Assembly: GCA_049318585.1 (NCBI GenBank)
Contig: JBMOGB010000001.1
Span: 62,851 to 126,850, forward strand
Source: Bacteroidia bacterium
Lineage (GTDB): Bacteria > Bacteroidota > Bacteroidia > UKL13-3
Direction of reading: 5' to 3'
Length of the DNA: 64,000 nt
Within the stretch, counting starts at the first letter, position 1; every line of letters starts with the position of its first letter. The position numbers and the translations under genes were made by a program. The notes under the pieces are model-generated. The model was not told the DNA's origin, did not search any database, and was given only the letters and a program-made list of their open reading frames with translations. Below are positions 8,635 through 49,289 of this stretch, in pieces.

Positions 8635-8637
8635 TAA

Positions 8638-8990: not shown

Positions 8991-9042
8991 ATAATGTAAT
9001 AAAACAACATATCAATTAATATGGTTTGTTAAAAGGAGAGTT

Positions 9043-9732
9043 ATGTTCATTAAAAAATCATCAGATTTTGATAAAGGTTTAGTTTCTAATTATGAAAAAA
9101 TATTAACTGGTGGAGATCAGTTAGCAGAAGCTGATAAAGTAAAAAAAGCAGTATCATTACTAAATGAAGCCTGTGAGCTTTTAGAATGCGAAGGAGATAC
9201 CTATGGAAGCGTTTGTAGAAAAATTGAAAAAGCAATTAAAGATGTAGGAAAAACTTGCGACGATGGCGAATGCGTTACAGAAGTCGGATCTTCAGAAGAT
9301 CTAGAAGAATCTGTCCAAGATGATATAGATGACCAATCAGCCGAATATTCCGATGATGAAGATTCTGCTGATGAAGAAAACGAAGGTCTATATACTGGTA
9401 CTATATCAGTTGGCGATGAAGACGAATCTGATGATGAATTTTTTACCGACGAAGATAACACAGAAGACGATGAATCTTTTGCAGAAGATGACAATGAAGA
9501 AGACGACGAGGACGACGAGGACGACGAGGACGACGAGGACGAAGATGACGAAGATGACGAAGACGACGACGAAGACGAAGATGACGAATTAGAAAAAGCA
9601 GCTTATTACAAATATGCAAAGAAAAAAGATAGCAAAGCAAAAAAACCAACAAAAAGCGAAAAAGCCAAAATTTGCGAATTATGCAACGGCAAGCGCAAAG
9701 TTCTCGGCAAAATTTGCGATTGGTGCAAATAA
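9043..9732 (+). CDS. hyper-acidic protein with C-terminal CxxC..CxxC zinc ribbon
   Basis: SD aaaaggagag lies upstream. Contains a long D/E tract with (gacgacgag)x4 and gaagatgac repeats at ~9508-9590. C-terminus is CELCNGKRKVLGKICDWCK. Confidence 0.7.
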   Translation: MFIKKSSDFDKGLVSNYEKILTGGDQLAEADKVKKAVSLLNEACELLECEGDTYGSVCRKIEKAIKDVGKTCDDGECVTEVGSSEDLEESVQDDIDDQSAEYSDDEDSADEENEGLYTGTISVGDEDESDDEFFTDEDNTEDDESFAEDDNEEDDEDDEDDEDDEDEDDEDDEDDDEDEDDELEKAAYYKYAKKKDSKAKKPTKSEKAKICELCNGKRKVLGKICDWCK

Positions 9733-9749
9733 TCGTTATATAATCTCTC

Positions 9750-21203: not shown

Positions 21204-21773
21204 ATGGATGCAACAGTAAAAGCGTTTCAAGATTACTTAAAATCATCACCTCTGGGAGTTTCATATGGTGGACCTTGCGATGGGGAAATTTCCGCCCCTG
21301 GATTAAAAGCTGCCCTTATAGCTTTGCAAAATGCCGTCAGAAAAGCTTTATCAGAAAAAACAGATGAGAAGTATAAAGAATTATCAAAAACTTTTACAGT
21401 GCTATCTGGTGATAAAATATCCGCTTCCGTTGAAAATATTAAACAAATATTGGCAGTTCCATCAAATCCAGCAACAACTCCAACACAAGAAGCTAAACCA
21501 GGAGAAGATAAGAATATAAAAGCCATTCAAGAAATGTTTAATTCAAATCCATTTGGCTTAAGTTATTCAGGTCCAAAAGATGGGATAATGAATGACCAAC
21601 TTGCAGTTGCTTTAAAACAACTCGAAGAAAAAATAACAGCAACAACCGGCGCAAGCGTGGCTGGTCAAATAGTATCTGGAAATAAAGTGCTTACAGATTC
21701 TGGAGACCTTTCTAAAACTTTCTCTTTAGTAAAATCTTATCTGAAGTTTGAAGCAGATAAATCTAAGAAATAA
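21204..21773 (+). CDS. protein with two peptidoglycan-binding-like repeats
   Basis: VKAFQDYLKSSPLGVSYGGPCDGEISAPGLKAALIALQ and IKAIQEMFNSNPFGLSYSGPKDGIMNDQLAVALKQLE both fit the V..(F/I)Q..L......DG......(T/L)..A(L/V)..(L/F)Q pattern of PG_binding_1. Confidence 0.55.
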   Translation: MDATVKAFQDYLKSSPLGVSYGGPCDGEISAPGLKAALIALQNAVRKALSEKTDEKYKELSKTFTVLSGDKISASVENIKQILAVPSNPATTPTQEAKPGEDKNIKAIQEMFNSNPFGLSYSGPKDGIMNDQLAVALKQLEEKITATTGASVAGQIVSGNKVLTDSGDLSKTFSLVKSYLKFEADKSKK

Positions 21774-22572
21774 CTAATTGCTTTTCCTTTTCTTTTTCTT
21801 TTTTCCTTTTCCAATATTCCCTTCTCTGCTTTATAATCTCTGGCTTCTTTCTATATTCTTTTCTCCATAATTTGTCCCTTTCTATTACTTTTGGATCCTT
21901 CATATATTCTCTTCTAGATTCCATTATCTTTTCTTTATCTCTTTCATATTGCAGCTTCCTTCTTAAGATATTCTTATCACTCTCACCATAAGATTTATTT
22001 GTTTCTTTACATCTGTCACATTTCTTTGTCTTACTAAAACAGCTTGCTAATTTATTGTTCCTACAACCAACGCAATATTTAATATCATTATTTTTTACAG
22101 TTTCTATTATATTTCTATCAAGATTATATTTCTCATTTAAATTATTTCCATTATCATTTTTAATAGCTTCAATTATTTCTTTTTTCATCTTCTTTATTGC
22201 AAACCATATCTTATCTTCCTCAGTTATAATTTTGTTAGATAAATGAGAATTGCTCATATTAAGCCTTGCATTTAAAGTTGGCTTTCCGTGAGCCCCGCCT
22301 TCTTTCATGTTATATCCATATTTGCTATTTGTACTTTTATATGCTTCTATAAATGATATCTCTAAATAATCAGCAGCCTCTTGTCCATAACAATTGCCAA
22401 GCAATTCAATAGAAAAGCTATCAAGCCCATATTTATTAAATGCACTTTCTAAATGCTTATTAGGAGCATGCCTTTTATGGCAGTTAAATCTTTTTTTAAT
22501 TGTTTGCCATGTTTGTCCTATATATACTTTGTTATTGACCTTGTTTCTTATAACATAAATGGAGCATATCAT
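21763..22572 (-). mobile_element. free-standing GIY-YIG homing endonuclease gene
   Basis: IYVIRNKVNNKVYIGQT (GIY..YIG), RFNCHKRH, NKHLESAFNKYG and YNMKEGG (catalytic E region). Basic C-terminal DNA-binding-like tail with CxxC..CxxC. Convergently overlaps 21204..21773 by 11 nt. Confidence 0.85.
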
Positions 22573-23689: not shown

Positions 23690-24703
23690 ATGAATATTTT
23701 TAATACACAAGGACAATTAAATGCATCTTCAGTAAAAGATGCATTTCAAACAATTATGAAATTCGCCTCAATTCTTGAGGATAACGTCCCATCAAATGCC
23801 TCGCTAGCTGGTAGACCAGACTTAAGCGATACCGGCAGAGATGACCTAATCACCAGAGCCATCATGACAATGGACGGTAAAATTGCTTTAGCCCAGGCTA
23901 TGGCAAATCCAATCCGCAGAAATTTAGACTATCAGGGAATTGCCCGTAGAACACTAGTGTTAGATCCTCTACCACAAGGCGCTCTACCAGTTTATGACCG
24001 CGATATCGACGTTGCTGCAGTTATCGTATCAAGTAACGGTACAGCACCAGAGAGCCGCGTATTTGCAGAGAGAATTACGGTTCCAGAATTTGAAATTATT
24101 TGCAATCCAACAGTTCGTATTCACGAAGTTCGCAGACGACGATTCAATGTAATTGACCGTGCCGTTCAAAAGGCTCGTCAAGAAATCATGGCTCAAGAAG
24201 ATGCAAACATCTTTGCAGCCCTAGACACAGCTTCTCAAGTAGAGAACACTCTTACCGACATCGCTGATGGTGGTTTAACAAAGAGAGACCTATCAGAAAT
24301 CAAAGTTTCAATTGATCGTTGGGACCTAGTAACTACCAAGTTCTTCCTAAACATTAATGAGTTCAATGACATTCTAAATTGGGGCTCAGGCGGTGGACAA
24401 GGACCTCAAGGTGGCGAAGTAGATCCAGTAACTCAACGCGAGATTCTACAAACTGGTCTATATGCACATCTTTGGGGAGCAGACATTCATGTAAGCAAGA
24501 TCGTTCCTCCAGGCACAGTATATGGTTGTGCAGATCCAGAGTTCGTAGGCGTTATGCCAGTACGTCAGGACATCGAAGTCCTTCCTGCTGATGAACCTCG
24601 CCAATTAAAATTGGGCTGGGTAGTAAATGAAATAATCGGTATCGGCATTGTAAATCCAAGAGCAGTGGCCGCTGGACGCAAATCAGTACAAATAAACCCC
24701 TAA
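23690..24703 (+). CDS. major capsid protein, HK97 fold
   Basis: AGGAG (23681-23685) lies 4 nt before ATG 23690 (the ORF track starts at TTG 23639). RRNLDYQGIARRTLVLDPLPQGALPVYDRD.., ITVPEFEI.., RRRRFNVIDRAVQKARQEIMAQEDANIFAAL.., GADIHVSKIVPPGTVYGCADPEFVGVMPVRQD.. follow the typical HK97/encapsulin-type capsid pattern. GC-rich, with terminators on both sides. Confidence 0.85.
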   Translation: MNIFNTQGQLNASSVKDAFQTIMKFASILEDNVPSNASLAGRPDLSDTGRDDLITRAIMTMDGKIALAQAMANPIRRNLDYQGIARRTLVLDPLPQGALPVYDRDIDVAAVIVSSNGTAPESRVFAERITVPEFEIICNPTVRIHEVRRRRFNVIDRAVQKARQEIMAQEDANIFAALDTASQVENTLTDIADGGLTKRDLSEIKVSIDRWDLVTTKFFLNINEFNDILNWGSGGGQGPQGGEVDPVTQREILQTGLYAHLWGADIHVSKIVPPGTVYGCADPEFVGVMPVRQDIEVLPADEPRQLKLGWVVNEIIGIGIVNPRAVAAGRKSVQINP

Positions 24704-24738: not shown

Positions 24739-24773
24739 AAGCCGGATAGATAACTATTCGGCTTCGTTATTTT
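24739..24773 (+). terminator. rho-independent terminator after the capsid gene
   Basis: aagccggatag-ataa-ctattcggctt forms an 11-bp stem (one G-U) with a tetraloop, followed by cgttatttt. Confidence 0.75.
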
Positions 24774-24823: not shown

Positions 24824-25636
24824 ATGAAAGTTGATAAAAATATAGAACAAGAGATAATAAAAAGATATTCTGATGGCGAATCATCTGAAAAATTAGCTAA
24901 AGAATTTAATGTTAATGGGACTACAATATGTAGAAAATTAAAAAAACACAGTATAAAAATTAGAAGCTCACAAGAAAACAAACAATTATATAAAAAAGAC
25001 GAGAATTGGTTATTAGATATAAACACTGAAGAAAAAGCATATTTTTTAGGGCTAATGATTTCTGATGGAACTGTGCATTCAAAAAGAGAAGCCTCTAGCA
25101 TTTCTTTATTAAAAGATGATGCTGATGTCTTATCTAAAATATCTATACTAGTATATGGATTTGATAATACTAAAATTTATAGTATAAAGAACTCGTTATT
25201 GAAAATAAAAAAATTAGATTTTTATGGCAAATGTTTTAAAAATAATTTAATAAAACATAGCTGTATGCCGAATAAAACATTTATTGTAACATATCCAAAT
25301 ACAATACCAGAAAATCTACAATCACATTTTATAAGAGGATTATTAGATGGCGATGGCTGTATTTATGTATCTAAAAATAGATTTATTGTTGATTTTGTTG
25401 GAACTCATATGCTTTTGAATGGAGTTAAAAATATAATCAATGACATATTTAGAATGAATATTTTATTTTCATTTTATAAAGGGAAAAAACATAAAGATAC
25501 AATTTGCAGTATGAGAATAAATAAAAAAAATGATGTTAAAAAATTTCTTGACTTTATATACAAAGATTCTACAATATATTTTAATCGTAAAAAAGATAAA
25601 TATATAGAGATAAAAGAGCAGGCATTGGCAAGTTAA
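24824..25636 (+). mobile_element. free-standing LAGLIDADG homing endonuclease gene (double-motif) with N-terminal HTH
   Basis: YFLGLMISDGTV and FIRGLLDGDGCIY are two LAGLIDADG motifs ~100 aa apart. N-terminal YSDGESSEKLAKEFNVNGTTICRKLKK is HTH-like. Confidence 0.85.
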
Positions 25637-25668: not shown

Positions 25669-26607
25669 ATGTCAAACAAAATTTTAGATAAAGATTTGCT
25701 AGATGAAATTATTAGGATAAAAGAATTATTAGGAAAAAATCCTAAGCAAGAAGATATAGCTATTCATAGCAAATTTAGTTTAAATAGTTATAAAAGAGCA
25801 TTTGGAGGCTTAGGCGGGGCTTTAATAAAGATAGGGGAAAATCCAACTTATATTACAGGACAAAATAAAGAAGATGTTATATCTGAAATTAAACGGCTAT
25901 ATAAAGAATTAAATAGAATTCCAAAAACATCTGAATTTACTAGATTATCATCAATGTCATTTCAAACTCTTAGAAAAATTTGTAATAAGCAATCATGGCA
26001 TTCATTATTATCAGAATGCGGAGCTACTGATGCTGAAATATCAAAATTAAAAAAGCATCATGTAACAAGTAAAGAGCTTAAAGAAGAGATTTTAAGATTA
26101 AAAAGTTTTCTTGGGAGATATCCTACATATATAGAGATGGCAAAGGAAGGTAAATTTTCTTGTAATACATATGAAGAAAAATTTGGGTCATGGGCAAAAG
26201 CATTTAAAGCTCTTGGATTTGATGATTATGTTTCGCAAAGTATATATAAAAATCAAATTCATGCAAAAGGAAATGATGGAAATATATATAGATCAAATTT
26301 TGAATCAAGAGCAGCCAATTTCTTATATACTTTAAAAAATAAAAATGAAATTTTAACATACGAATATGAGAGAAGGGTTTGTATTGGTAAAATTTGGACA
26401 TGTGATTTTGTAATAACGAAAAATAGCAATGAAGAAATTTGGTTAGAGCTTGATGGAATGTTAGATAAGCGAAAAGAACCATATGACAAGAGTAAAAAGA
26501 TTGATTTTTACAAGCATAGCAATATAAACTATTATATTTACAAATATGCATCAAGCAAAGAAAAGATAGAAACAGACATTTACAATATAATTTTTGAAGA
26601 AAAATAA
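25669..26607 (+). mobile_element. endonuclease-like protein: 3 homing-endonuclease-associated (HNH_repeat-type) repeats + C-terminal PD-(D/E)xK-like domain
   Basis: Three ~50-aa repeats (..EIKRLYKELNRIPKTSEF.....F.TLRK....SW..LL.ECG). C-terminus FESRAANFLY..YEYERRV...WTCDFVI....EIWLELDGM. Confidence 0.6.
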
Positions 26608-27378
26608 ATGGGATTTATTAATAAATATTCAAGCAAGAGTTTTTTGGGAAGATTATCAAAAAATATAATTGAGAATGATAATTTTATATCCTGGGAAGTT
26701 CGCGGGAAGAGAAAAGTAATTATCATAAAATATGATAGTAATATAATTGATGAATTATATAAGTTAATGCCATTTACATTTTTATATTTTGATAAGGATA
26801 TTGTAGACATATTAAAAAATGATAATAGATTTAATGTAAGAGCTTCTAAAGGAGAAGCAATTGAAACCGACATAAGCAAATGGAATGGGGTAAGCGGAAA
26901 AGAATGGAAAGATATTAGGTATACATTAAATAAAGCTAAAGAATATAATATTGAAGCAAGAGATACATTTGATATATTAGAGGTTGAAGAATTTGTAAAG
27001 AAATGGAGATATAGTTATGGAACAAAATATTTCAGGGATCATTCTTCTCAAAATACATTTTTTTTCAGAAGCGGAAATCATAATGAATGTATAAGTAGAT
27101 TTTATTATATAGACGGAAAGTTAGTTAGTTATGCTGTATTATCGCCTCCAGATTTGGAAGGTAATGCTCCATACATAATAAGAAAAACATTATATCAAGA
27201 ATATTATGGATTGACAGAGTATGTTGATTGTGATATTCTTAATATTGGTAAAGATGCTGGGATAAAAATAATAAATTGGGGAGGTGGATCCAATAAATTA
27301 TTAAAGTATAAAGCGAAATATCCACATTCAAAAACGGTATATCATTACGAAGGAAATTGCGAGGTAAAAAATGGGTGA
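26608..27378 (+). CDS. possible DUF2156/MprF-C-terminal-like (aminoacyl-tRNA-dependent transferase fold) protein
   Basis: WNGVSGKEWKDIRYTLNKAKEYNIEARD..VEEFVKKWRYSYG resembles the G.K.K.(I/L)R...N...K.G.....W core of DUF2156. Weak, by eye. ATG abuts the previous stop. Confidence 0.3.
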   Translation: MGFINKYSSKSFLGRLSKNIIENDNFISWEVRGKRKVIIIKYDSNIIDELYKLMPFTFLYFDKDIVDILKNDNRFNVRASKGEAIETDISKWNGVSGKEWKDIRYTLNKAKEYNIEARDTFDILEVEEFVKKWRYSYGTKYFRDHSSQNTFFFRSGNHNECISRFYYIDGKLVSYAVLSPPDLEGNAPYIIRKTLYQEYYGLTEYVDCDILNIGKDAGIKIINWGGGSNKLLKYKAKYPHSKTVYHYEGNCEVKNG

Positions 27379-28480
27379 TACGACTCCTATAAACATAGAT
27401 GGAACAGCCATAACAAAACAATATTTATTAACATTAACAATAGATGAGAGGAAAGAACAGTTAATTAAAGTAATGAAGTATTATCGGGATTATGGATTTC
27501 CATATCCAAAGTATGATGATAATACGATATTAAGAGATTTTAGTGCATTAAAGGACTTTGATACAAATACAATTATTGATGGGGACAGGCTTAGAGATTC
27601 TACGGCGGCTGGGTTAAAGGTATTTAAGCATTTTTGTCCTCAAATATATGATGTATATAGGGGGAATAAGCCATCGATGGTTCAAGCATTTAATAATGAT
27701 TCTATATTAAAAAAATGTTTAGAGAACAGGATGGGAATATCGTATATGGGAATCAACAGATATGGGCAAGATTTTATTGCGATATTTAATATAACGAATG
27801 GGATGATAAGGCAAGGATTGAGGAACGGGTATTTTTCTTCGCAAGTAAGCATATTTAAACCAGCTATTGCAAAAGCGATATATGATAAATATACAAAAGA
27901 GAATGATATTGTATATGATTTTTCTATTGGATTTGGGCAACGATTGGCTGGAGCTTTAAGTTGCAAGAACAATTTGAAATATATTGGATGTGATCCATGG
28001 GATAAATGTGTTAATGAAGCAAGGGAAATTGGAAGGTTCTTTGGGCGAGAAAATGATGTGGTTGTTGAGCAAGCTGGGTCTGAAGTATATTGTCCAGAAG
28101 AATTTATTGGAAAGGTAAGTTTGGCATTTTCATCTCCTCCATATTTTAATATGGAAGTTTATGATAATAATAATTCGACGCAAGCGTATAGTGGTGGAAT
28201 GGATTATTTTGTAAATGTATGGTTTGATAAGACGCTTGAAAACATGTCTAAATTATTAAAAGAAGATGGCATAATTGCATTGAATATTCCTCAAAATATA
28301 TTTGCTATTTTAAATGGTAAGTTAAAGAATTATAATTTTGAAGTAAAGACAGTATTATATGTTCAATTAACTAGGAATGCAAAATTTCATGTAAAAGAAA
28401 GTAAGACCAAATTGGAACCAATTTATATAATTGGAAAGTCTGAGCCGCTTATACCCCCTCCAGTATTTTCTTCAAAATAA
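27371..28480 (+). CDS. SAM-dependent methyltransferase with SPPY motif (N6-A/N4-C DNA or RNA MTase)
   Basis: VYDFSIGFGQRLAGAL (motif I-like) and LAFSSPPYFNMEVY (motif IV, (S/D)PPY). 8-nt overlap with the upstream gene. Confidence 0.6.
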   Translation: MGDTTPINIDGTAITKQYLLTLTIDERKEQLIKVMKYYRDYGFPYPKYDDNTILRDFSALKDFDTNTIIDGDRLRDSTAAGLKVFKHFCPQIYDVYRGNKPSMVQAFNNDSILKKCLENRMGISYMGINRYGQDFIAIFNITNGMIRQGLRNGYFSSQVSIFKPAIAKAIYDKYTKENDIVYDFSIGFGQRLAGALSCKNNLKYIGCDPWDKCVNEAREIGRFFGRENDVVVEQAGSEVYCPEEFIGKVSLAFSSPPYFNMEVYDNNNSTQAYSGGMDYFVNVWFDKTLENMSKLLKEDGIIALNIPQNIFAILNGKLKNYNFEVKTVLYVQLTRNAKFHVKESKTKLEPIYIIGKSEPLIPPPVFSSK

Positions 28481-28510
28481 ACAATATTGCTAATTTTAAT
28501 ATATATTTAT

Positions 28511-29416
28511 ATGAAGCTTAATGGGCTATTAAATATGTTTTGCAAATATGCTGCTTTAGATTTATTATCAATGGATATAAATCCAGATAATATTGATGAA
28601 GTTTTAAAGCAAATAGACTCTGAAATTGAGACTATAACTGGCAAAAAAGAAGATTTGCTTCAAAAAATGAATGACATAATACATAGTGCTGACGATTATC
28701 ATAAAGGAGAAAGTATTTTAGAACATACTAAGGAAGTATTACAAAACATAGAAAATATGGCTGATGAAATAACTGGGATTAATGATAATGCTTTAAAGTT
28801 ATTAAGATTAGTTGCATTATTTCATGATATTGGGAAAGTATATACCTTTGCAATTACCAAAAAGAATGATAAGACAAAGCACACATTTTATAGTCATGCG
28901 GCTAAAAGTGTTGAGGTCTTAAAATTATTAATTTCTAAAGATCTAGCTGAAGATTCCAATTTCCATCATGATTTAACTGAGCTTGTAAAGGCACATAATA
29001 GTATGATGGATTTGTTAGCTAGCAAGAAAGGTGATGATCCAGCTTATGTTAAAAGGTTAGTAGAAAGTACAATAGGCAAAAGAGACCTTATAAAGCAATT
29101 AAATATATTTATGAAAGCGGATTCTATGACTGAACACGCTATGAAAGAAACATTAAAAACTATTAATTCAATCACGGAAGATGTCCCAAGATATCACACG
29201 CAATTAAAAGAAAAAGAAAATAGAGCGGCAGCTATAGACCAAATGATAGTAGATAAAAAAGATGAAGTTGAAGAATTGTTAAATATAGAGCTTCCAAATG
29301 ATACTAATAGATTAATGGCATTATATCCAAACATTGGGCAAATACGTGGAGAAATAATGAAAGCAAAAAGAAAAGATATATTAGGTAAATTAAATATTAT
29401 AATTCCAGTAAGGTAA
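28511..29416 (+). CDS. HD-domain phosphohydrolase
   Basis: ILEHTKEV.., LLRLVALFHDIGKVYT (HD), FYSHAAKS, FMKADSM. ATG 28511 (the track starts at TTG 28487). Leader is LLNMFCKYAALD. Confidence 0.7.
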   Translation: MKLNGLLNMFCKYAALDLLSMDINPDNIDEVLKQIDSEIETITGKKEDLLQKMNDIIHSADDYHKGESILEHTKEVLQNIENMADEITGINDNALKLLRLVALFHDIGKVYTFAITKKNDKTKHTFYSHAAKSVEVLKLLISKDLAEDSNFHHDLTELVKAHNSMMDLLASKKGDDPAYVKRLVESTIGKRDLIKQLNIFMKADSMTEHAMKETLKTINSITEDVPRYHTQLKEKENRAAAIDQMIVDKKDEVEELLNIELPNDTNRLMALYPNIGQIRGEIMKAKRKDILGKLNIIIPVR

Positions 29417-29417
29417 T

Positions 29418-30059
29418 ATGCTCATAATAAAAGCAATACATATATTTTATAAATTGGCGATAGACGAAAGAAATGAATATCTTGGATTTAAAAGCGATTT
29501 AAAGCAAGTGAGGGATCCAAGACAACTTTCAATTAAATATATAGATAAACATGATATTGAAATTAAAGATTATAATGTTAAAACAATGCCAAGTGGATTA
29601 TTGAATTTTTTAATAAACAATAGGTTCGCTAATGGTTCTTTGGCAGATGACTATGAAAATATTTTATCTTTAAAAGAAGAAATTAATAAAGGAGATTTAG
29701 AATCAGTTGATGACTATTATATATTAGTAGCTACATATAAAAAGAAAACTGTAGGAGTATGTATTTTTTTAACTGAATCTAATGATCATATAAACACTTT
29801 TGTTAAATTAGAATTTAGGCAGCAAGGAGTTGGTAGATTATTAATAAATAAATTAAGAGAAAAATATCCAAATGCAAAATCTTATGGTGGAAGTCCAATA
29901 GGAGGATATTTTTATGGTAGTACTACTGGCAGCAAATCAGAAGAAAAAATAGCCTTAGATTATATTGATAATTTAGCTGAAGAACGGCTATTACAAGAAG
30001 AAAATCAAGAAAATCAAGAAAATCAACATAATGAAAATCAATTAGAATTATTCAATTAG
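29418..30059 (+). CDS. GNAT-family N-acetyltransferase, copy 1
   Basis: ILVATYKKKTVGVCIF...FVKLEFRQQGVGRLLINKL (motif A, R/Q-x-x-G-x-G). Leader MLIIKAIHIFYKLAIDE. TAG stop where copy 2 has TAT. Confidence 0.7.
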   Translation: MLIIKAIHIFYKLAIDERNEYLGFKSDLKQVRDPRQLSIKYIDKHDIEIKDYNVKTMPSGLLNFLINNRFANGSLADDYENILSLKEEINKGDLESVDDYYILVATYKKKTVGVCIFLTESNDHINTFVKLEFRQQGVGRLLINKLREKYPNAKSYGGSPIGGYFYGSTTGSKSEEKIALDYIDNLAEERLLQEENQENQENQHNENQLELFN

Positions 30060-30072
30060 GATAAAAGGTAAC

Positions 30073-30732
30073 ATGTTCATAATAAAAGCAATAGACATAT
30101 TTTATAAATTGGCAACAGACGAAAGAAATGAATATCTTGGATTTAAAAGCGATGTAAAGCAAGTGAGGGATCCAAGACAGCTTTCGATTAAATATATAGA
30201 TAAACATGATATTGAAATTAAAGATTATAATGTTAAAACAATGCCAAGTGGATTATTGAATTTTTTAATAAACAATAGGTTCGCTAATGGTTCTTTGGCA
30301 GATGACTATGAAAATATTTTATCTTTAAAAGAAGAAATTAATAAAGGAGATTTAGAATCAGTTGATGACTATTATATATTAGTAGCTACATATAAAAAGA
30401 AAACTGTAGGAGCATGTGTTTTTTTTGCTGAAGATGATCATATAAACACTTTTGTTAAATTAGAATTTAGGCAGCAAGGAGTTGGCAGATTATTAATAAA
30501 TAAATTAAGAGAAAAATATCCAAATGCAGAAAATACAGGATCTTATGAGGATACTCCAATAGGAGGATATTTTTATGGTAGTACTACTGGCAACAAATCA
30601 AAAGAAAAAATGGACTTAGATTATATTAATAATTTAGCTGAAGAACGGCTATTACAAGAAGAAAATCAAGAAAATCAAAAAAATCAACATAATAAAAATC
30701 AATTAGAATTATTCAATTATGATAAAAAGTAA
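30073..30732 (+). CDS. GNAT-family N-acetyltransferase, copy 2
   Basis: ~90% identical to copy 1, with the same FRQQGVGRLLINKL motif. Leader MFIIKAIDIFYKLATDE. Confidence 0.7.
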   Translation: MFIIKAIDIFYKLATDERNEYLGFKSDVKQVRDPRQLSIKYIDKHDIEIKDYNVKTMPSGLLNFLINNRFANGSLADDYENILSLKEEINKGDLESVDDYYILVATYKKKTVGACVFFAEDDHINTFVKLEFRQQGVGRLLINKLREKYPNAENTGSYEDTPIGGYFYGSTTGNKSKEKMDLDYINNLAEERLLQEENQENQKNQHNKNQLELFNYDKK

Positions 30733-30733
30733 C

Positions 30734-31954
30734 ATGTTCATAATAAAAGCAATAGACATATTTTATAGATTAACAAAAATAGCTGATCATGAATCAGAAG
30801 TGGTAAAAGCATTAATCAAATTTATAGCAGATACTGCAAGAGAAGCTGGAGTAGCAAATCATAGTTATATAGTTGGAGGATCAGTTAGAGATTTCGTTAT
30901 GGGAGTTGATCCAAAAGATATTGATATTGTTGTTGAAACAAAAATTGATGATGACGGTAATGTAAAGAATGCTACTACTCTTGGCACAGCAATAGCTGAT
31001 AAGCTTGGTTTAAAAGTTCAAGCTGATCAATATGGAGTTGTTCATATTGGACCAGTAGCTAAAGATTTTATTTTTGAAGGGCAAAATCTTATTGGGCAAA
31101 AAATAGAAATAGTAACAGCAAGAAAAGAGCAATATAATAGAGGCGGCAAAAGTTCGCACAAGCCATCAGAGGTTGCTCCTGGAACAATTGAAGATGATTT
31201 ACAAAGGAGAGACTTTACTTTCAATACATTGACTTGGAGGTTATCAGATATTGATAAAGGAGTGGAAGGAGCACCTGTAATTGATTTGTTAGGTACTGGC
31301 AGAAGAGATTTAGATGAAAGAACAGTAATGACTCCAATTGATCCAGAACAAACATTTTTAGATGATCCAAGCAGAATGTTAAGAGCTGTAAGATTTGCTA
31401 TTAAATATAATTTTACAATGAAACCAGAAGTTGCAGAAGCAATAAAAAGAAATGCAGAAGAAATAAAAAGAATGCCATATGAGCCAATAGCAGATGTATT
31501 TACCGGCAAGATACTATCTTTAGGTAAAGAAAAAGCAATGAAAGCAATTGAGCTTATGGATGATTTAAATTTATTAAAGCCTACATTAGAAATGATCAAT
31601 AAGAGTTTTCTAAAAAACAAATTAAAAGATATGCCAGTTGGTAATGACCCAGACTTCTTAATGTTTTTATTATCATATTTGAAAGAATATAATATTGAAA
31701 ATTTCATATTTAAATTTCCACTTGAATTTGAATCAGATCTTATGACATTACATAAATTATTATCGCACGAAGAATTTGCTTCATTATACAAAAAGCTTCA
31801 AGGGAATTTGATAAATGTAAATAAGTTTATGAAAGAATTTAAAGTATCAGGGTCTGCAATTGGAAAGCTTGTATTAAAAGCTAAAAAATTACTCGTTGAT
31901 AATCCAAATATGTCAATTGAAGCTATTGAAGATATTTTAGCAAGCGAATTATAA
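30734..31954 (+). CDS. class-II nucleotidyltransferase (tRNA CCA-adding enzyme / poly(A) polymerase family), head+neck, no HD domain
   Basis: YIVGGSVRDFVMGVDPKDIDIVVET (GG.VRD...D.D), IEDDLQRRDFTFNTL, FLDDPSRMLRAVRFAIKYNF. ATG 30734 avoids overlap (the track starts at 30719). Leader MFIIKAIDIFYRL. Confidence 0.85.
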   Translation: MFIIKAIDIFYRLTKIADHESEVVKALIKFIADTAREAGVANHSYIVGGSVRDFVMGVDPKDIDIVVETKIDDDGNVKNATTLGTAIADKLGLKVQADQYGVVHIGPVAKDFIFEGQNLIGQKIEIVTARKEQYNRGGKSSHKPSEVAPGTIEDDLQRRDFTFNTLTWRLSDIDKGVEGAPVIDLLGTGRRDLDERTVMTPIDPEQTFLDDPSRMLRAVRFAIKYNFTMKPEVAEAIKRNAEEIKRMPYEPIADVFTGKILSLGKEKAMKAIELMDDLNLLKPTLEMINKSFLKNKLKDMPVGNDPDFLMFLLSYLKEYNIENFIFKFPLEFESDLMTLHKLLSHEEFASLYKKLQGNLINVNKFMKEFKVSGSAIGKLVLKAKKLLVDNPNMSIEAIEDILASEL

Positions 31955-31971
31955 TTGATATATAGTTTTAT

Positions 31972-33075
31972 ATGCGATATTTTCTAGATGCAAATGCACA
32001 TGTTCCATTAAAATTAACATTTGATGAAATAAAAGAAGCAGAAGATAAACTATCAACGTTTGGTAATCCATTATCTCCAAGTTTTATTGGGCAAAAAACA
32101 AAAAAATTTGTTGAACAAACAAGAGAAGAAATTGCTTTGCTTCTTGGCATTGAAGATGCTTTCTCAATATCATTTACAAGTTCATGTTCAGAGGCTAACT
32201 ATTGGGCTTCTTTAATTATTTCTAATAACTTCTTATCTAAAGTTGGTAATGAAGATTTGCCAAATATAAATATATCACCATACGAGCATAGAAGTATTAA
32301 TGATTGTTTGTCTGTACTTCCATTTAATAAAAATTTTATAAAATTAGATAATAGTGGGGCTATAGATAATATATCAAATGCAGATTATTCAATTTTTATT
32401 GGGGCACAGAACGAGACTGGGACAATAGCTGATTTCAATCTAATAAGACAGAATACTAACAAATTATTTATGAGTGATCTTGCTCAAGTAATTGGTAAAA
32501 CCCCAATTAATTTAAATGATTCAGGAATTGATATTGCTACATTTGGGGCGCATAAATTTGGTGGACCTACCGGTATTGGCTTTTTATATTTAAAAGATCC
32601 AGAAAATTGGTGCCCCTTAAATAATATAAAGTCATATTATCATGACGCTCCAGGGTCATTAAATGTTAGAGGGGTTTATTTGGCATATCTAGCTTTAAAA
32701 AAATCCATTAATAATATAAAAGAAAATATGGAAAAGGCAAAGTCTTTTCAAATAGAAGTTGAAAATAATTTATCAAATATTGGATTTGAAGTTATTGGCG
32801 GTAATAATAGAATATCAACAACAACATTAGTAAAAGTTCCAGATAATAAAGGATTAGATTTATTACTAGAGTTATCTGATAATAATGTATATGTTGGATT
32901 AGGGTCAGCTTGTGGATCATCAGAAGAGCAGCCTTTATTATCAGCTATTGCCCTTGGCTATAAAGATGCTGTAAATACGCAATTTATTAGAATTAGCCAG
33001 ACTGGGCAATATGATTATAATGATGCTAAAGTAGTGTCAGATATAATATACAAATCATTTAAATCTTTGGAGTAG
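31972..33075 (+). CDS. class-V aminotransferase / NifS-IscS-like cysteine desulfurase
   Basis: ATFGAHKFGGPTGIGFLYLK (PLP-lysine HK motif) and VGLGSACGSSEEQP (active-site Cys loop, compare SSGSAC). Confidence 0.75.
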   Translation: MRYFLDANAHVPLKLTFDEIKEAEDKLSTFGNPLSPSFIGQKTKKFVEQTREEIALLLGIEDAFSISFTSSCSEANYWASLIISNNFLSKVGNEDLPNINISPYEHRSINDCLSVLPFNKNFIKLDNSGAIDNISNADYSIFIGAQNETGTIADFNLIRQNTNKLFMSDLAQVIGKTPINLNDSGIDIATFGAHKFGGPTGIGFLYLKDPENWCPLNNIKSYYHDAPGSLNVRGVYLAYLALKKSINNIKENMEKAKSFQIEVENNLSNIGFEVIGGNNRISTTTLVKVPDNKGLDLLLELSDNNVYVGLGSACGSSEEQPLLSAIALGYKDAVNTQFIRISQTGQYDYNDAKVVSDIIYKSFKSLE

Positions 33076-33076
33076 C

Positions 33077-33385
33077 ATGAGTGTAGTTATAAATACAAAA
33101 GTAAAAATTCCTTCAGAAAAAGAAACTAAAATAAAAATTTTAGGTTTAGCTCAAATATATGGGTGTTATCCAGAAGCTAAAAAAGCGTTCTATAAATTTG
33201 AGCAATATAGTTCTGCATATAGACCAGACGATGTTAATGCTAAATTTCAAATAGCAGCAGGATTTATAAAAACATTATCAGAAATTAGCATACATTTAGT
33301 AGCTTGGCTAGCAGATGAAAATGGCAATATAATGATAAATAATGTTGTTGTTTTTACAGTTGAAGACGTGCCGAATAAAGAATAA
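33077..33385 (+). CDS. hypothetical 102-aa protein coupled to the desulfurase gene
   Basis: ATG lies 1 nt after the previous stop. No recognisable motif. Confidence 0.5.
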   Translation: MSVVINTKVKIPSEKETKIKILGLAQIYGCYPEAKKAFYKFEQYSSAYRPDDVNAKFQIAAGFIKTLSEISIHLVAWLADENGNIMINNVVVFTVEDVPNKE

Positions 33386-33444
33386 TTTTTTATCTGTCAT
33401 TTTTTATATATTATTTTTGGATATATTTACCTAAAAGAGGAATA

Positions 33445-33666
33445 ATGAATAGTTTTAAAGGAACTGTAGTTTGGTTCAATGTGAGTAGAGGATATGGATT
33501 CATTAAAAGAGATGATAATAAAGCCGATATATTTGTGCATTATAGTGATATAAATGCTGCTGGGTATAAAGTATTAAGAGCGAATGATGTTATTACATTT
33601 GAAGAAGGGTTCACTTTTAAAGAGAAATTAAAAGCAACAAATGTAACTGTTGTTGAAAGAAAATAA
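33445..33666 (+). CDS. csp: cold-shock domain protein (CspA family)
   Basis: SD aaaagagg lies upstream. GTVVWFNVSRGYGFI (RNP1) and DIFVHYSDI (RNP2). 73 aa. Confidence 0.9.
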   Translation: MNSFKGTVVWFNVSRGYGFIKRDDNKADIFVHYSDINAAGYKVLRANDVITFEEGFTFKEKLKATNVTVVERK

Positions 33667-33678
33667 TATTTGGAAGAT

Positions 33679-35994
33679 ATGTTTAAAATATATAAACTAG
33701 CAGATCTATACGAAAATATATGTTTTAATTTGTTTAAAATAGCTGGGCTAAAAGAAGTTAAAGAAAAATATCCAAATATATCTAAAGAAATTGACGAATT
33801 AAATAATCAAGTAAAACCTAAATATTTGGGTTGGGGGGCTAAACAACTAAATGATGGGTTTGTTCTTCAAGATATAGCAGAAGCTTTAAAAACATTTGAT
33901 AGATTATCACAAAATTTAGAGACTATAGATAGAGATATTAATAAGTATGATTCTTTAGAAACTCTAAAGACTAAATTAGAAACTTTACAGAGCAGGCAAA
34001 GAAGAACAGTAGATACTAAAGGATTAGACGCTGAAGTCTTATATGAAGATGCTAGATATACCATGGTTAGACCAAACACTAAAATGGCAAGTATCAAATT
34101 AGGTTCTGGTACTAAATGGTGTATAACTGAACAAAAAAGAGAACATTTTAATCGATATCAATCAGATAATGTAGTATTTTATATCTTAATTGATAAAACA
34201 TTGAAAAGTTCTAATACAAATTATAAAATTGCTTTTTCAGTTGAAAGAGATTTAGAATGTAATATAATTAAAATTACAGGGTGGGACGCTACTAATAAAG
34301 ATAGAAAACCAGAAGAATATCCAGGATATTCTCTTGTAGAAGATATTATAAAAAAAGATGCAGAAGCATTGCCCCCAAATATGATTGTTTATTTTAATGA
34401 AGAGATGTTAAGCGAGGAAGAAGCTAATTATTTCATATCATTGCAAGATGCTGAATTTTTAGAAAAATTTGAAATCCCACGAAAATATAGGCACCTTGTA
34501 AATCCGGTTGAAAATATTGAGACGGAGACAAAAGAACAAAAATATCAATATCTTAGAAATCCCAATATAAGCATAACAAAAAAAATTATTATGATAAAGG
34601 AAGAAAAGGACCCTAATACTTTATTATATTTAAGCACAAAAAATGATTTGCCTAATGAAATAATTGAACCTATAATTAAAAACAATAATACTCCAATTAA
34701 TGTTTTAGGACTTCTTTATAAAAAATATAAAGATAAAGATAAAGATGCATTTATACAAAATCCTAATTGTCCCTCTAATATTTTATTTGATATTTTAGTC
34801 GAAACACATAAATCAAATGAACGACCTGATCATCTTGTTACTAGTTTATTTTTACGTAGAGATATAACTCCTCAAATGATAGATTTTATGTTAAAACATT
34901 GCAAATTTAGTGATTACTTTAACTGCTATCTAAATATTATAAATAATAGTTATGTGTCTATAAAAGAAAAAATAAAAGTTTTAAATAGTAATAACATAGA
35001 CATGCTTAGGATAGTAAATTATTTATATTATAACGATATGCCTTCTGATGTATTATATATTATATTAAATATAATAAAAGAGAGAGCAATACCAATGGAA
35101 TTACATAAGCTAGAATCTATGATGTGGTGTTGCAATTTAGATTTAAAATGTTTTAAAATTTTATTAGAATTAAATCCAGATATAACTACTTATGTATTTA
35201 AGCTACCTACTATACCTTATGAAATTTTAAATTTTCTTGCTGAAAGTGAAGATGGAGATATGGATATATTATTCGAAATATTAGCTAGTGAAAAATTAGA
35301 TGATAATTTATATTTAAAAATAAAAGATAAAATTAGTGAGTATAGTAAAATAAGGATGGCAAAAAGTAAGCGTAATATATTGCCATTAATTATAAAGCAT
35401 GAAGGTAATGCTACTATAGTTGATGCAGTTGAGATCCTGCTAGATAATGCCCAAGATAGCAAGCTATTTGAAATTTTATCAAATCATAATTCTGCAAAAG
35501 TAAGACTTGCTTTAATCAAAAATTATAATATCCCTTCATTAATTCTTGAAAAATTAACGAAGGATAAAGACCAATACGTTAGAGAAGCAGCTGTTGAAAC
35601 TTATAAATTTTCACCTAGAAAAGATACAGATGATTATTCCTCTGGAAATCAGCATGTTAATACAGAACAGAAACCAGAAGAAGAATCTTCACATGATAAA
35701 TTATTAAAAAGAAAACCAATTTTTGAAACAAGGAAATATTCTGATGAATATATTTCTTTACATGGAACAGAAGACCAAATGATGGAATTATTAGACAAAA
35801 ATCCTCCACAGAAAATATTAGAAAATATGGCTTATAACACAAAAATTCCTTATAATGTTCAATTTGAATTAGCCTTATTAAACAATGATAAAGTTAATAA
35901 AATATTATATGACAATCCTACAGTTGATGAAGATATAAAACGAGATCTCCATGCTTATTTTCATGCAGAATACGAGGAAGAATTAGACGAATAA
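33679..35994 (+). CDS. leader-tagged protein: conserved N-terminal ..TKWCITEQ.. domain + HEAT/LRV-like repeats, copy 1
   Basis: ATG 33679 (the track starts at TTG 33670). MFKIYKLADLYENICFNLFKIAGLKE leader. GSGTKWCITEQ..VVFYILID..KIAFSVERD. Repeats such as NHNSAKVRLALIKNYNIPSLILEKLTKDKDQYVREAAVETY. Confidence 0.65.
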   Translation: MFKIYKLADLYENICFNLFKIAGLKEVKEKYPNISKEIDELNNQVKPKYLGWGAKQLNDGFVLQDIAEALKTFDRLSQNLETIDRDINKYDSLETLKTKLETLQSRQRRTVDTKGLDAEVLYEDARYTMVRPNTKMASIKLGSGTKWCITEQKREHFNRYQSDNVVFYILIDKTLKSSNTNYKIAFSVERDLECNIIKITGWDATNKDRKPEEYPGYSLVEDIIKKDAEALPPNMIVYFNEEMLSEEEANYFISLQDAEFLEKFEIPRKYRHLVNPVENIETETKEQKYQYLRNPNISITKKIIMIKEEKDPNTLLYLSTKNDLPNEIIEPIIKNNNTPINVLGLLYKKYKDKDKDAFIQNPNCPSNILFDILVETHKSNERPDHLVTSLFLRRDITPQMIDFMLKHCKFSDYFNCYLNIINNSYVSIKEKIKVLNSNNIDMLRIVNYLYYNDMPSDVLYIILNIIKERAIPMELHKLESMMWCCNLDLKCFKILLELNPDITTYVFKLPTIPYEILNFLAESEDGDMDILFEILASEKLDDNLYLKIKDKISEYSKIRMAKSKRNILPLIIKHEGNATIVDAVEILLDNAQDSKLFEILSNHNSAKVRLALIKNYNIPSLILEKLTKDKDQYVREAAVETYKFSPRKDTDDYSSGNQHVNTEQKPEEESSHDKLLKRKPIFETRKYSDEYISLHGTEDQMMELLDKNPPQKILENMAYNTKIPYNVQFELALLNNDKVNKILYDNPTVDEDIKRDLHAYFHAEYEEELDE
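33970..34470 (+). repeat. 501-nt block 100% identical to 36312..36812
   Basis: Checked line by line. The first mismatches lie at 33969/36311 and 34471/36813. Confidence 0.9.
35782..35965 (+). repeat. 184-nt block 100% identical to 38112..38295
   Basis: atggaattattagacaaaaatcctccacag...ccatgcttattttcatg is identical in both tandem copies. Confidence 0.9.
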
Positions 35995-36020
35995 AGCTGC
36001 ATTAGAAAAGAGATAATAAT

Positions 36021-38324
36021 ATGCATAAAATATATAAACTAGCAGCTCTATACGAAAATATATGTTTTAATTTGTTTAAAATAGCTGGATTAAAAGAAGT
36101 TAAAGAAAAATACCCAAATATATCTAAAGAAATTGAGAAATTAAATAATCAAGTAAAACCTAAATATTTAGATTGGGGAGCTACACAACTAAATGATGGA
36201 TTTGTTCTTCAAGATATAATCGAAGCTTTAAAAACATTTGATAGATTATCACGAAATTTAGAGACTGCAGATAGAGATATTAATAAGTATGATTCTTTAG
36301 AAACTCTAAATACTAAATTAGAAACTTTACAGAGCAGGCAAAGAAGAACAGTAGATACTAAAGGATTAGACGCTGAAGTCTTATATGAAGATGCTAGATA
36401 TACCATGGTTAGACCAAACACTAAAATGGCAAGTATCAAATTAGGTTCTGGTACTAAATGGTGTATAACTGAACAAAAAAGAGAACATTTTAATCGATAT
36501 CAATCAGATAATGTAGTATTTTATATCTTAATTGATAAAACATTGAAAAGTTCTAATACAAATTATAAAATTGCTTTTTCAGTTGAAAGAGATTTAGAAT
36601 GTAATATAATTAAAATTACAGGGTGGGACGCTACTAATAAAGATAGAAAACCAGAAGAATATCCAGGATATTCTCTTGTAGAAGATATTATAAAAAAAGA
36701 TGCAGAAGCATTGCCCCCAAATATGATTGTTTATTTTAATGAAGAGATGTTAAGCGAGGAAGAAGCTAATTATTTCATATCATTGCAAGATGCTGAATTT
36801 TTAGAAAAATTTAAAATCCCGCCAAAATATATGCGCCTTGCAAATCCGGTTGAAGATATTGAGATAGAGACAAAAGAACAAAAATATCAATATCTTAGAA
36901 ACCCAAATATAAGCATAACAAAAAAAAATCATATGATAGATAAAGAAAGGGACCCTAATACTTTATTATATTTAAGCACAAAAAATGATTTACATCTTGA
37001 AATAATTAAATCTATAATTACAAACATTAATACTCCAACTAATGCTTTAGTCCTTCTTTATAAAAAATATAAAGATAAAGATACATTTATACAAAATCCT
37101 AATTGCCCATCTAATATTTTATATAATTTTTTAATCGAAGCATATAAAACAAATAAAATAGGACTAAAGTATTTTACTCCTATAAGTTTCCAAAGAAATA
37201 TAACTCCTCAAATAATAGATTTTATTATAAAAAATTGCAACTTTATTGATTACGAGGATTTCTATGTTAATATTATAAATAATAGTTATGTGCCTATAAA
37301 AGAAAAAATAAAAGTTTTAAATAGTAATAACATAGACAAGTGTAGGATAGTAAATAGTTTAAATTATAGACGTATATCTTCTGATTTATTATATATTATA
37401 TTAAATATAATAAAAGAACAAGCAATACCAATGAGCTCATTTGCACTAATAGACATGAAAAACTGTAAAGATTTAGATTTAAAATGTTTTAAAATTTTAT
37501 TAGAATTAAAGCCAGATATAACTCCTTATGTACTTAAGCTATATACTCTATCTTATGAAATTTTAAATTTTCTTGCTGAAAGTAAAGATGAAGATATATT
37601 ATGCCAAATATTAGTTAATCAAAATTTAGACGATAATTTATATTTAAAAATAAAAGATAAAATTAACGTATCTAATAAAATAAATTCAGCAAAAAGTAAT
37701 CATAAAATATTGACATTAATTATAAAGCATGAAGATAATGATACTATAGCTAAAGCAGTTGATCTTCTGATAGATAATGACCAAGATAGAGAGATATTTG
37801 AAATTTTATCAAATCATAATTCTGCAAAAGTAAGACTTGTTTTAAGCAAAAATCATAATACTCCAAAATTAATTCTTAAAAAATTAATAAAAGATAAAGA
37901 CCAACAAGTTAGAGAATCAGCTACTAAAACTTATGAATTTTTAACTAGAAAAGACACAGGAGAAAAGGAACCAGAAAATCATCATGTTAATACAGAACAG
38001 GAACCAGAAGAAGAGTCTTCACACGATAAATTATTAAAAAGAAAACCAATTTTTGAAACAATGGGATATTCTGATGGATACATTTCTTTACATGGGACCG
38101 AAGAACAAATAATGGAATTATTAGACAAAAATCCTCCACAGAAAATATTAGAAAATATGGCTTATAACACAAAAATTCCTTATAATGTTCAATTTGAATT
38201 AGCCTTATTAAACAATGATAAAGTTAATAAAATATTATATGACAATCCTACAGTTGATGAAGATATAAAACGAGATCTCCATGCTTATTTTCATGAAGAA
38301 TATGAGGAAGAATTAGATGAATAA
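36021..38324 (+). CDS. leader-tagged TKWCITEQ-domain + HEAT/LRV-like repeat protein, copy 2
   Basis: Tandem paralogue of 33679..35994. The ends are identical or near-identical, and the central ~1.3 kb is diverged with indels. Confidence 0.65.
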   Translation: MHKIYKLAALYENICFNLFKIAGLKEVKEKYPNISKEIEKLNNQVKPKYLDWGATQLNDGFVLQDIIEALKTFDRLSRNLETADRDINKYDSLETLNTKLETLQSRQRRTVDTKGLDAEVLYEDARYTMVRPNTKMASIKLGSGTKWCITEQKREHFNRYQSDNVVFYILIDKTLKSSNTNYKIAFSVERDLECNIIKITGWDATNKDRKPEEYPGYSLVEDIIKKDAEALPPNMIVYFNEEMLSEEEANYFISLQDAEFLEKFKIPPKYMRLANPVEDIEIETKEQKYQYLRNPNISITKKNHMIDKERDPNTLLYLSTKNDLHLEIIKSIITNINTPTNALVLLYKKYKDKDTFIQNPNCPSNILYNFLIEAYKTNKIGLKYFTPISFQRNITPQIIDFIIKNCNFIDYEDFYVNIINNSYVPIKEKIKVLNSNNIDKCRIVNSLNYRRISSDLLYIILNIIKEQAIPMSSFALIDMKNCKDLDLKCFKILLELKPDITPYVLKLYTLSYEILNFLAESKDEDILCQILVNQNLDDNLYLKIKDKINVSNKINSAKSNHKILTLIIKHEDNDTIAKAVDLLIDNDQDREIFEILSNHNSAKVRLVLSKNHNTPKLILKKLIKDKDQQVRESATKTYEFLTRKDTGEKEPENHHVNTEQEPEEESSHDKLLKRKPIFETMGYSDGYISLHGTEEQIMELLDKNPPQKILENMAYNTKIPYNVQFELALLNNDKVNKILYDNPTVDEDIKRDLHAYFHEEYEEELDE

Positions 38325-39324: not shown

Positions 39325-39663
39325 ATGCCTTGTGGTCCAATATTATATTATGATCAAGGACAATTAGCAACAATAGTCCTTCATACAAATAAAAATTCAG
39401 AAAATCCAATAATTCAAAAAATAATTGCTCCAAATATGAATGCGTTGCAAGGGTTCCCAGCCCCTATGCATAAATTGGACAAAGATGATAATGAAATATT
39501 TGTGGCAAGATTTAAATTGCCAACTGGGTCTTCTAATTGTGGTACCTATCTTTGTTTTATAAAATGGGAAGAAATTTCAGGGGATAATAAAATCGAATGT
39601 AAAGATGTATATACAGTAATAGTTAGACAACAAAGCTCAAGCATTTCAGTTTCTGGTATTTAA
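39325..39663 (+). CDS. hypothetical protein
   Basis: 112-aa ORF with SD-like aaggaagt upstream. Its stop overlaps the convergent fcl stop (TTAA). Confidence 0.5.
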   Translation: MPCGPILYYDQGQLATIVLHTNKNSENPIIQKIIAPNMNALQGFPAPMHKLDKDDNEIFVARFKLPTGSSNCGTYLCFIKWEEISGDNKIECKDVYTVIVRQQSSSISVSGI

Positions 39664-49249: not shown

Positions 49250-49289
49250 AATTATGATGTTGTCCTATTATTATATTCGTATTTTTTGT

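Follow-up and report, generated by a model that had tools for sequence, protein, structure and literature searches.

The DNA analysed here, a window of 64,000 nucleotides (nt) on contig JBMOGB010000001.1 (assembly GCA_049318585.1), carries at positions 26608-33666 a run of nine genes that we read as a composite accessory island of a jumbo phage and not as one pathway, a reading to which we assign a probability of about 0.6. The island would combine a module A, consisting of an HD phosphohydrolase and a CCA-type tRNA nucleotidyltransferase (NTase), a module B, in which a DUF2156-like protein is paired with a methylase, and several passenger genes, with a short N-terminal leader shared among some of the products. 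It sits between the major capsid protein (MCP) gene and the backbone genes p102, p150, p118 and p112 of a phage G-like jumbo phage.

The original prediction, made from the letters of the sequence and a list of open reading frames (ORFs), described ten consecutive genes and proposed that they form a single tRNA or RNA 3'-end repair and modification toolkit, perhaps directed against tRNA-targeting defences of the host. The ORF listing gives nine genes, all on the + strand. Together with profile scans of the window proteins against Pfam, PHROG and NCBIfam it reproduces the genes, their strand, their coordinates and the domain calls, and every motif that had been quoted is present in the sequence (SPPY, LFHDIGK, RQQGVGRLL, GGSVRD..DID, RRDFTFNTL, DDPSRMLRAVRF, HK and GSAC). 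The run is indeed tight, with spacing of -8 to 59 nt (successive junctions of 0, -8 (overlap), 6-30, 1, 13, 1, 17, 1 and 59 nt, then 3 nt to the next gene), but it is not special in being on one strand. Almost all genes from 14.9 to 39.7 kb of the window are on the + strand, so a same-strand run says little alone.

The identity of the phage follows from three observations. The MCP ORF (23639/23690-24703, +) encodes a protein that is 52% identical to gp27 of Bacillus phage G and matches phrog_2522, a DNA similarity search with the island against 50,697 phage records gave no match, and relatives of the NTase were found on metagenomic contigs of 200-475 kb. Judged by these similarities, the window is a piece of an uncultured phage G-like jumbo phage.

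We compared six related loci gene by gene with the window. A backbone is conserved across the loci, comprised of a decoration protein, the MCP and then p102, p150, p118 and p112. In locus L010 the MCP and p102-p150-p118-p112 lie near each other with none of the island's enzymes between them, and the slot from MCP to p102 carries differing sets of accessory genes in the window, L001, L007 and L008. Those added in the relatives encode thioredoxin, a SpoU methylase, NADAR, a cytidine/dCMP deaminase, DUF1003, a dual-specificity phosphatase and a protein of 508 amino acids (aa). The DUF2156-like/methylase pair occurs in the window, in the near-identical strain ERZ1426853, in L008 and in L013. HD and NTase genes occur together in the window, ERZ1426853, L001 and L007. 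In L001 and L007 the two are side by side, with an overlap in L007, and in the window and ERZ1426853 they stand two genes apart. The proposed linkage of HD and NTase is thus borne out, as the two are still neighbours in the nearest relatives. A GNAT lies between them only in the window and ERZ1426853 and is located elsewhere in L001, where the NTase gene is inverted, on the strand opposite to the HD and capsid genes, so that HD and NTase are divergent. The desulfurase is found in the window and L001 only, and the cold-shock protein (Csp) gene is kept at the locus in L001, L007 and L008. Three more distant clades (L004, L011 and L012) have the NTase without any of these neighbours. By its gene content, the run is a mosaic in a hypervariable, homing-endonuclease-rich insertion slot and not a conserved operon.

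The same comparison changes the assignment of the ORF p102 (33077..33385, +; 102 aa, no family match), which had been described as coupled to the desulfurase. It does abut that gene, but by synteny it is a backbone gene: p102 follows the NTase directly in L007 and L008, where the desulfurase is absent, and in L010 it lies near the MCP without any island enzyme. As a sulfur acceptor or desulfurase partner p102 was rejected on these grounds.

The GNATs and the desulfurase are, by their distribution, variable passengers, and we found nothing pointing to the RNA substrate that their inclusion in an RNA toolkit had presumed. The two GNAT genes (copy 1, 29418..30059; copy 2, 30073..30732; both + and both matching Pfam GNAT) encode proteins that are 89% identical and belong to a repeat with a unit of ~655-661 nt (29410-30776), the copies of which are 89-97% identical. 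At the sequence level the pair is a recent tandem duplication. Since a third, partial copy of the repeat extends 14 codons into the NTase gene, we propose unequal crossing-over between the leader-coding stretches of the ancestral GNAT and NTase genes. The NifS/IscS-type cysteine desulfurase (31972..33075, +; Aminotran_5/NifS/IscS, E 7e-27) has kept its pyridoxal phosphate-binding lysine (AHKFGG) and its catalytic cysteine (GSAC) both in the window and in the 39%-identical L001 orthologue. No sulfur acceptor or user (IscU, TusA, ThiI, MnmA, DndC) and no thiolase was detected among the ~46 window proteins scanned, and the homologues of the desulfurase in phage records, which resemble fragments that are unannotated or host-like, provided no gene context. 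The sulfur could be destined for tRNA, for DNA phosphorothioation or for iron-sulfur clusters.

Within module A, the NTase (30734..31954, +) is encoded by an ORF that opens at 30719 with a likely start at ATG 30734, where it begins with the leader MFIIKAIDIFYRL. Profile scans detected a PolyA_pol head with its RNA-binding domain (E 2e-17) and a match to phrog_2244, tRNA nucleotidyltransferase (E 3e-34). An AlphaFold2 (AF2) model built from an alignment of 48 relatives has a predicted local distance difference test score (pLDDT) of 94.7. With Foldseek, its top 16 PDB fold matches are CCA- or A-adding enzymes while E. coli poly(A) polymerase ranks lower; the model aligns over ~400-450 columns to 6qy6, 1miv, 3h37/5hc9 and 4wc2, with E values down to 5e-14, and has the full head-neck-body-tail architecture. 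Motifs A (GGSVRD, DID), B (RRDFTFNTL) and D (DDPSRMLRAVRF) are invariant across the 48 relatives. The class II call was therefore well placed and, as modeled, the protein is a full-length enzyme of the class II tRNA nucleotidyltransferase type. A scan of viral_contigs with the NTase confirmed nothing, and the exact protein is not on record.

The NTase itself has no HD match and no HD motif, the HD protein being encoded by a separate gene two genes upstream (28511..29416, +; HD/HDIG, E 4e-11; ORF from 28487, likely start ATG 28511, leader MKLNGLLNMFCKYAALD). On the CCA-enzyme profile TIGR02692 the two proteins match complementary parts, the HD protein covering positions 233-430 (E 7e-7) and the NTase positions 15-235. 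The HD protein also matches 3wfo/3wfp in PDB (3wfo, E 0.006), and its core is 32% identical (E 1e-5) to P0085, a Bacteroidales NTase-HD fusion protein. It keeps the catalytic core (HT..VL, HDIGK, F..H), and no specific similarity was found other than to the HD part of enzymes of the CCA type. The original prediction had viewed HD and NTase as the split halves of a CCA/HD enzyme. What stands is that an HD protein of the CCA-enzyme kind is encoded separately; the term split is only approximately right because the NTase retains a body and tail of its own that are HD-less. Compared with bifunctional bacterial CCA/HD enzymes (the E. coli Cca type and P0085 in Bacteroidota), module A is made of two polypeptides, which for the same reason are not explained by simple gene fission, and in L001 the two genes are divergent.

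A role of the HD protein as a SpoT-type alarmone hydrolase was set aside, as it has no HD_4 match and its best matches are CCA-type HD domains, though a fusion in L007 keeps this candidate alive. There a RelA_SpoT-like (RSH) domain is fused to HD (8096-9574), and in L008 such a domain is fused to the NTase (8382-10115); both Pfam matches are sub-threshold (E 7e-4 and 2e-5). These fusions hint at a link to alarmone chemistry or to tRNA 3'-pyrophosphorylation. A leader-region junction similar to that of the GNAT repeat distinguishes the RSH-HD plus NTase arrangement of L007 from the RSH-NTase fusion of L008.

The HD domain of E. coli Cca has phosphodiesterase and phosphatase activity on 3' ends. 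By analogy with that enzyme, the phage HD protein would strip a blocking 2',3'-cyclic phosphate or 3'-phosphate from the damaged 3' end of a tRNA, and the NTase would then rebuild the CCA. The purpose may be tRNA repair, maturation of phage tRNAs, or both. The gene for a CspA-family RNA chaperone (33445..33666, +; CSD, E 4e-20), for which the original call holds, is conserved nearby in relatives.

Module A would be of a kind already known in large phages, because CCA-adding enzymes have been catalogued among jumbo-phage RNA-repair genes (Iyer et al. 2021, PMC7824862). Like those enzymes (phrog_2244), the window NTase is a class II Pol-beta NTase with motifs A, B and D and the head-neck-body-tail build, encoded by a large phage. 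Unlike them, it belongs to a distinct metagenomic clade no more than 38% identical to any isolate's enzyme, bears an N-terminal leader and has its HD protein encoded separately. In L012 (6663-9149) a distant NTase (43% identity) has, two genes upstream, an RNA ligase gene (PF09414), which links the NTase family to RNA repair on separate evidence.

Module B opens the island with a gene (26608..27378, +) for a soluble protein of 256 aa that had been called DUF2156-like on weak grounds. The protein itself scores 17 bits (E 0.003) against LPG_synthase_C (PF09924), below the gathering threshold of 27.5. Word-indexed homologue searches returned 1 match for it (and 2 for p102), while an exhaustive HMMER search of representatives yielded 48 relatives. 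LPG_synthase_C is matched by 18 of 30 family members (E<=0.01), with a best E of 1.9e-10. The AF2 model (pLDDT 95) is an entirely soluble alpha/beta fold. Its Foldseek ranks 1-18 are MprF/aaPGS C-terminal domains (template modeling (TM) scores of 0.65-0.71 with 5vrv, 4v36 and 4v34), followed by Sbb17/Sba18 and FemX; within ranks 1-26 the sole entry outside these groups is 2hqy, an uncharacterised Bacteroides protein. The weak call is thus upheld at the level of the fold, and we are confident that the modeled protein has the tandem-GNAT fold of aminoacyl-tRNA-dependent transferases. It shares this fold, and LPG_synthase_C matches across its family, with the MprF/aaPGS C-terminal domain (DUF2156), FemX and Sbb17/Sba18. 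It differs from them in being a 256-aa soluble protein coupled to a methylase-type gene. The membrane (flippase) domain of MprF is missing, and its relatives bear DNA-binding domains instead, fused at the N-terminus as HNH_repeat, HTH_7 or HTH_7+LAGLIDADG.

The partner gene (27371..28480, +) overlaps the DUF2156-like gene by 8 nt, and the overlapping pair is kept in ERZ1426853, in L008 and in L013, where the methylase is 27% identical to that of the window. The product scores 32.3 bits (E 1e-7) against N6_N4_Mtase (Pfam PF01555), for which the cut-off is 26.7. Motif I (DFSIGFG, at about residue 185) precedes motif IV (SPPY, 255), so that the protein is circularly permuted relative to the beta-class order, and the methylase profile aligns both motifs, in this permuted order, to the N4-cytosine DNA methylase 8s9m in PDB. 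Within a nucleotide-metabolism block of a Vibrio phage lies a homologue with the annotation N4-cytosine DNA methylase, and L007 encodes the methylase as a fusion with a homologue of the HNH_repeat protein. PDB sequence searches with the single methylase sequence, the small DUF2156-like alignment or the GNAT found nothing. With beta-class N6-adenine/N4-cytosine DNA methyltransferases (PF01555; 8s9m) the window enzyme has in common the Pfam match, the SPPY motif IV and a typical motif I context; it departs from them in its permuted order, in an extra N-terminal region of 150 aa without family, and in having a DUF2156-like partner that looks obligate.

The original prediction treated this methylase as an RNA enzyme and itself listed assignment to DNA methylases by profile among the outcomes that would speak against it. 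Membership in the N6/N4 DNA-methylase family, best matches to N4-cytosine enzymes and the DNA-binding fusion in L007 are what we found. Because the pair is repeatedly fused to DNA-binding domains of the homing-endonuclease kind, it probably acts on DNA. Module B would accordingly comprise a transferase of the DUF2156 fold and, in translational coupling with it, a permuted SPPY enzyme of the N6/N4 type, with DNA as the most likely substrate. For the deaminase that occurs in relatives, a matching methylase-thioredoxin-deaminase arrangement in the Vibrio phage nucleotide-metabolism block favours a dCMP deaminase over a tRNA deaminase.

What connects genes across the island and beyond is a leader peptide. 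Four island proteins (HD, both GNATs and NTase) bear it, as originally noticed, with MLIIKAIHIFYKLAID at the start of GNAT copy 1 as a further example. The leader follows approximately the pattern M-x-[KR]-A-[IA]-x-x-F-Y-K-[LF]-A-x-D and is amphipathic. Its core, [FIY][YFC][KR][LIFY][AT], occurs 9 times in the first 25 residues and 2 times elsewhere among 57 genes (binomial p = 2e-9). The carriers are HD, both GNATs, NTase, p774/p767, p561/p201 and p261, nine proteins from six unrelated families that have only the N-terminal 14-16 residues in common; their ORFs start at 28511, 29418, 30073, 30734, 33679 and 36021 (+) and at 45735, 47422 and 57293 (-). The leader is kept in the L001 and L006 orthologues. 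Its codons differ between families, so conservation is at the peptide level. DNA of the leader region is shared only among GNAT1, GNAT2 and NTase, through recent duplication. A nucleotide-level regulatory repeat was ruled out, since both the codons and the upstream regions differ between families. Looser forms of a KAIxKIA type are found in small proteins at 5714, 6225, 7224, 7677 and 18827 and in the N-terminal extension of the MCP (~23735-23770). This extension of ~45-60 aa is a trait of the MCPs of the window's clade and is missing from gp27 as annotated in phage G. For the capsid ORF the listing gives TTG 23639 as the start, but relatives begin at the equivalent of ATG 23690 (MNIF...). PHROG scans of the other leader-bearing proteins and of the backbone proteins gave no function.

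We propose that the leader directs HD, GNAT, NTase and at least five other proteins to a common partner, for which the procapsid is our leading guess. On this view the leader would be a capsid-targeting sequence, and HD, GNAT and NTase would be loaded into the procapsid and injected with the DNA for early repair of tRNA ends. We regard such packaging as a reasonable addition to the composite island, though one that we hold at somewhat below even odds. It would account for an N-terminal peptide as the sole common property of six families encoded in or beside the head module, and it gains from a similar motif inside the MCP N-terminal extension in four related phages. In the AF2 model of the NTase, moreover, the leader lengthens helix 1 (helix 2-38). 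There is a precedent in T4, where the capsid targeting sequence (CTS) is the sole feature common to diverse internal proteins (PMC3012670). As in T4, diverse unrelated proteins share just a short N-terminal peptide; the sequences are unrelated, however, and the cargo here would comprise the enzymes HD, GNAT and NTase as well as large repeat proteins. Against packaging, no prohead protease or cleavage consensus was identified, and in L007 and L008 the equivalent of the leader is internal, behind the fused RelA_SpoT-like domain. A degron, a helix that docks to a membrane or a partner, or a regulatory element would be equally good readings of the leader.

Several observations weigh against this reading of the island as a whole. 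Against NCBIfam equivalogs the NTase reaches ~102-106 bits with cut-offs of 306-439, and PcnB scores like the CCA models. No tRNA genes or Rfam matches were detected in the window or in the six related loci. Adjacency of HD and NTase is limited to the closest clade; it is absent from L004, L011 and L012, and neither L006 nor L008 yielded an HD-like protein. For module B, the endonuclease-domain fusions could have arisen by chance when homing endonucleases inserted and need not be functional links, and the DUF2156 fold, with its modeled resemblance to enzymes that use aminoacyl-tRNA, may indicate a looser tRNA theme that spans both modules.

The equal scoring of PcnB and CCA models leaves some room for an NTase with a role other than repair, either as a housekeeping CCA-adder for phage tRNAs without encoded CCA or as a poly(A) polymerase that targets host RNA for degradation. 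Phages rich in tRNAs widely encode tRNA NTases (PMC7824862), and the gene looks dispensable. In the near-identical strain (ENA ERZ1426853, protein P0001), the DUF2156-like protein is 98% and a truncated NTase 99% identical to those of the window; the NTase there ends after about 265-270 aa, with genes for a resolvase and TnpB (Cas12f1-like_TNB) behind it, which looks like interruption by an IS607-like insertion, and because of this disruption the NTase appears dispensable. We nevertheless consider both roles unlikely, given that CCA- and A-adding enzymes outrank E. coli poly(A) polymerase in the fold matches, that a CCA-type HD partner is close by, and that the window and related loci lack tRNA genes, with the limit that most of the genome lies outside the window.

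A more far-reaching proposal for module B is that the DUF2156-like protein and the methylase carry out aminoacyl-tRNA-dependent hypermodification of DNA by means of a tandem-GNAT enzyme of the MprF/FemX type. The Mom protein of phage Mu is a GNAT that moves glycine from Gly-tRNA onto DNA adenine (PMC13219725), and because of this precedent tRNA-dependent DNA modification is a legitimate but unproven reading. The confident aminoacyl-tRNA-transferase fold, the repeated N-terminal fusions to DNA-binding domains and the conserved overlap with a DNA-methylase-type gene all agree with it. The fold leaves the acceptor undefined, however, as the acceptors known for it are lipids, peptides and natural products; the fusions may be artefacts of homing-endonuclease insertion, as noted above, and no homologue was found in cultured phages. 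Mom and the window protein are alike in being phage enzymes of the GNAT superfamily that have links to DNA and could in principle use charged tRNA. Mom, though, is a single-GNAT dimer with no detectable sequence relation to the tandem-GNAT protein, which has a methylase-type partner, and in the window phage DNA modification is purely hypothetical. On balance we think this chemistry improbable for module B, and prefer the plainer reading of a pair that probably acts on DNA.

Extending the Mom-like proposal, the DUF2156-like/methylase pair might be a two-enzyme system for tRNA-dependent DNA hypermodification while HD, GNAT and NTase are delivered by the capsid, so that tRNA would be both co-substrate and protected resource; this combination seems to us a long shot. 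We give equally little credence to the toolkit of the original prediction. In its favour, HD, NTase and Csp all count as RNA-type proteins, the model bears out the DUF2156 fold, a SpoU RNA methylase and RelA_SpoT-like domains fused to HD or NTase turn up in relatives, and an RNA ligase lies near a distant NTase homologue. Against it, the methylase is DNA-type and tied to DNA-binding domains, the desulfurase is confined to the window and L001, scans of window proteins gave neither a sulfur acceptor nor a thiolase, the GNAT is located elsewhere in L001, p102 is a backbone gene, and the NTase gene has the reverse orientation in L001 and is broken by an insertion sequence in the near-identical strain. 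From that proposal the HD/NTase module survives; module B points to DNA, the remainder are passengers, and there is no conserved operon.

The surroundings of the island contain further mobile and structural elements. The upstream edge of the variable slot is marked by a terminator-like hairpin (24739..24764, +) with an 11-bp stem and a T-rich tail, directly 3' of the MCP gene. It is followed by a LAGLIDADG/HTH_7 homing-endonuclease-type gene (24824..25636, +; Pfam), in place of which relatives have other genes, and by the gene for an HNH_repeat protein (25669..26607, +), a homing-endonuclease-associated DNA-binding protein that abuts the DUF2156-like gene and has a weakly DUF559/Vsr-like C-terminus (DUF559, E 0.033). 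Genes of the homing-endonuclease type are unusually dense across the structural region (HNH, GIY-YIG, LAGLIDADG and HNH_repeat, plus five DUF4379/CapR treble-clef zinc-finger proteins). They lie at 9750-10913, 21763-22572 (-), 24824-25636 and 25669-26607, and further at 41618-42790, 42794-44131 (-), 48113-49249 (-), 55327-56505 (-) and 57381-58757 (-). The island has a GC content of 0.28, below that of the flanking structural genes, and a GC skew above theirs. Beyond its downstream end, and outside the span reported here, are the tandem paralogues p774 and p767 (33679..38324, +; 33679-35994 and 36021-38324), which are ~770 aa long, 80% identical and carry the leader core KIYKLA. They lie where the GC content of the window is lowest (0.24-0.26), and apart from a faint HEAT match they have no family. 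Metabolic or lysis-type genes are located at 13544-14554 (-), 39660-40592 (-) and 49134-51029; their products are a protein of the IMPDH/GMP-reductase family, an NAD-dependent sugar epimerase and a protein of the M23 peptidase type. The epimerase is kept beside the island in L001.

Taken together, the nine genes caution that tight same-strand runs in phage genomes should not be read as pathways. If module A works as proposed, a two-protein version of the bacterial CCA/HD repair enzyme would join the phage RNA-repair repertoire, perhaps delivered pre-made in the virion, which would bear on how phages survive tRNA-damaging defences. The leader, with at least nine unrelated proteins as carriers, would amount to a portable tag for targeting in an unstudied clade of jumbo phages. 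Module B, which joins an aminoacyl-tRNA-transferase fold to an enzyme of the DNA-methylase type and to DNA-binding domains in a conserved pairing, is a candidate for a new tRNA-dependent modification of nucleic acid and, should the combined reading be true, for a second and structurally different instance of the chemistry of Mu Mom. For the biology of these phages, the leader and the DUF2156-like/methylase pairing may thus matter more than the CCA enzyme itself.

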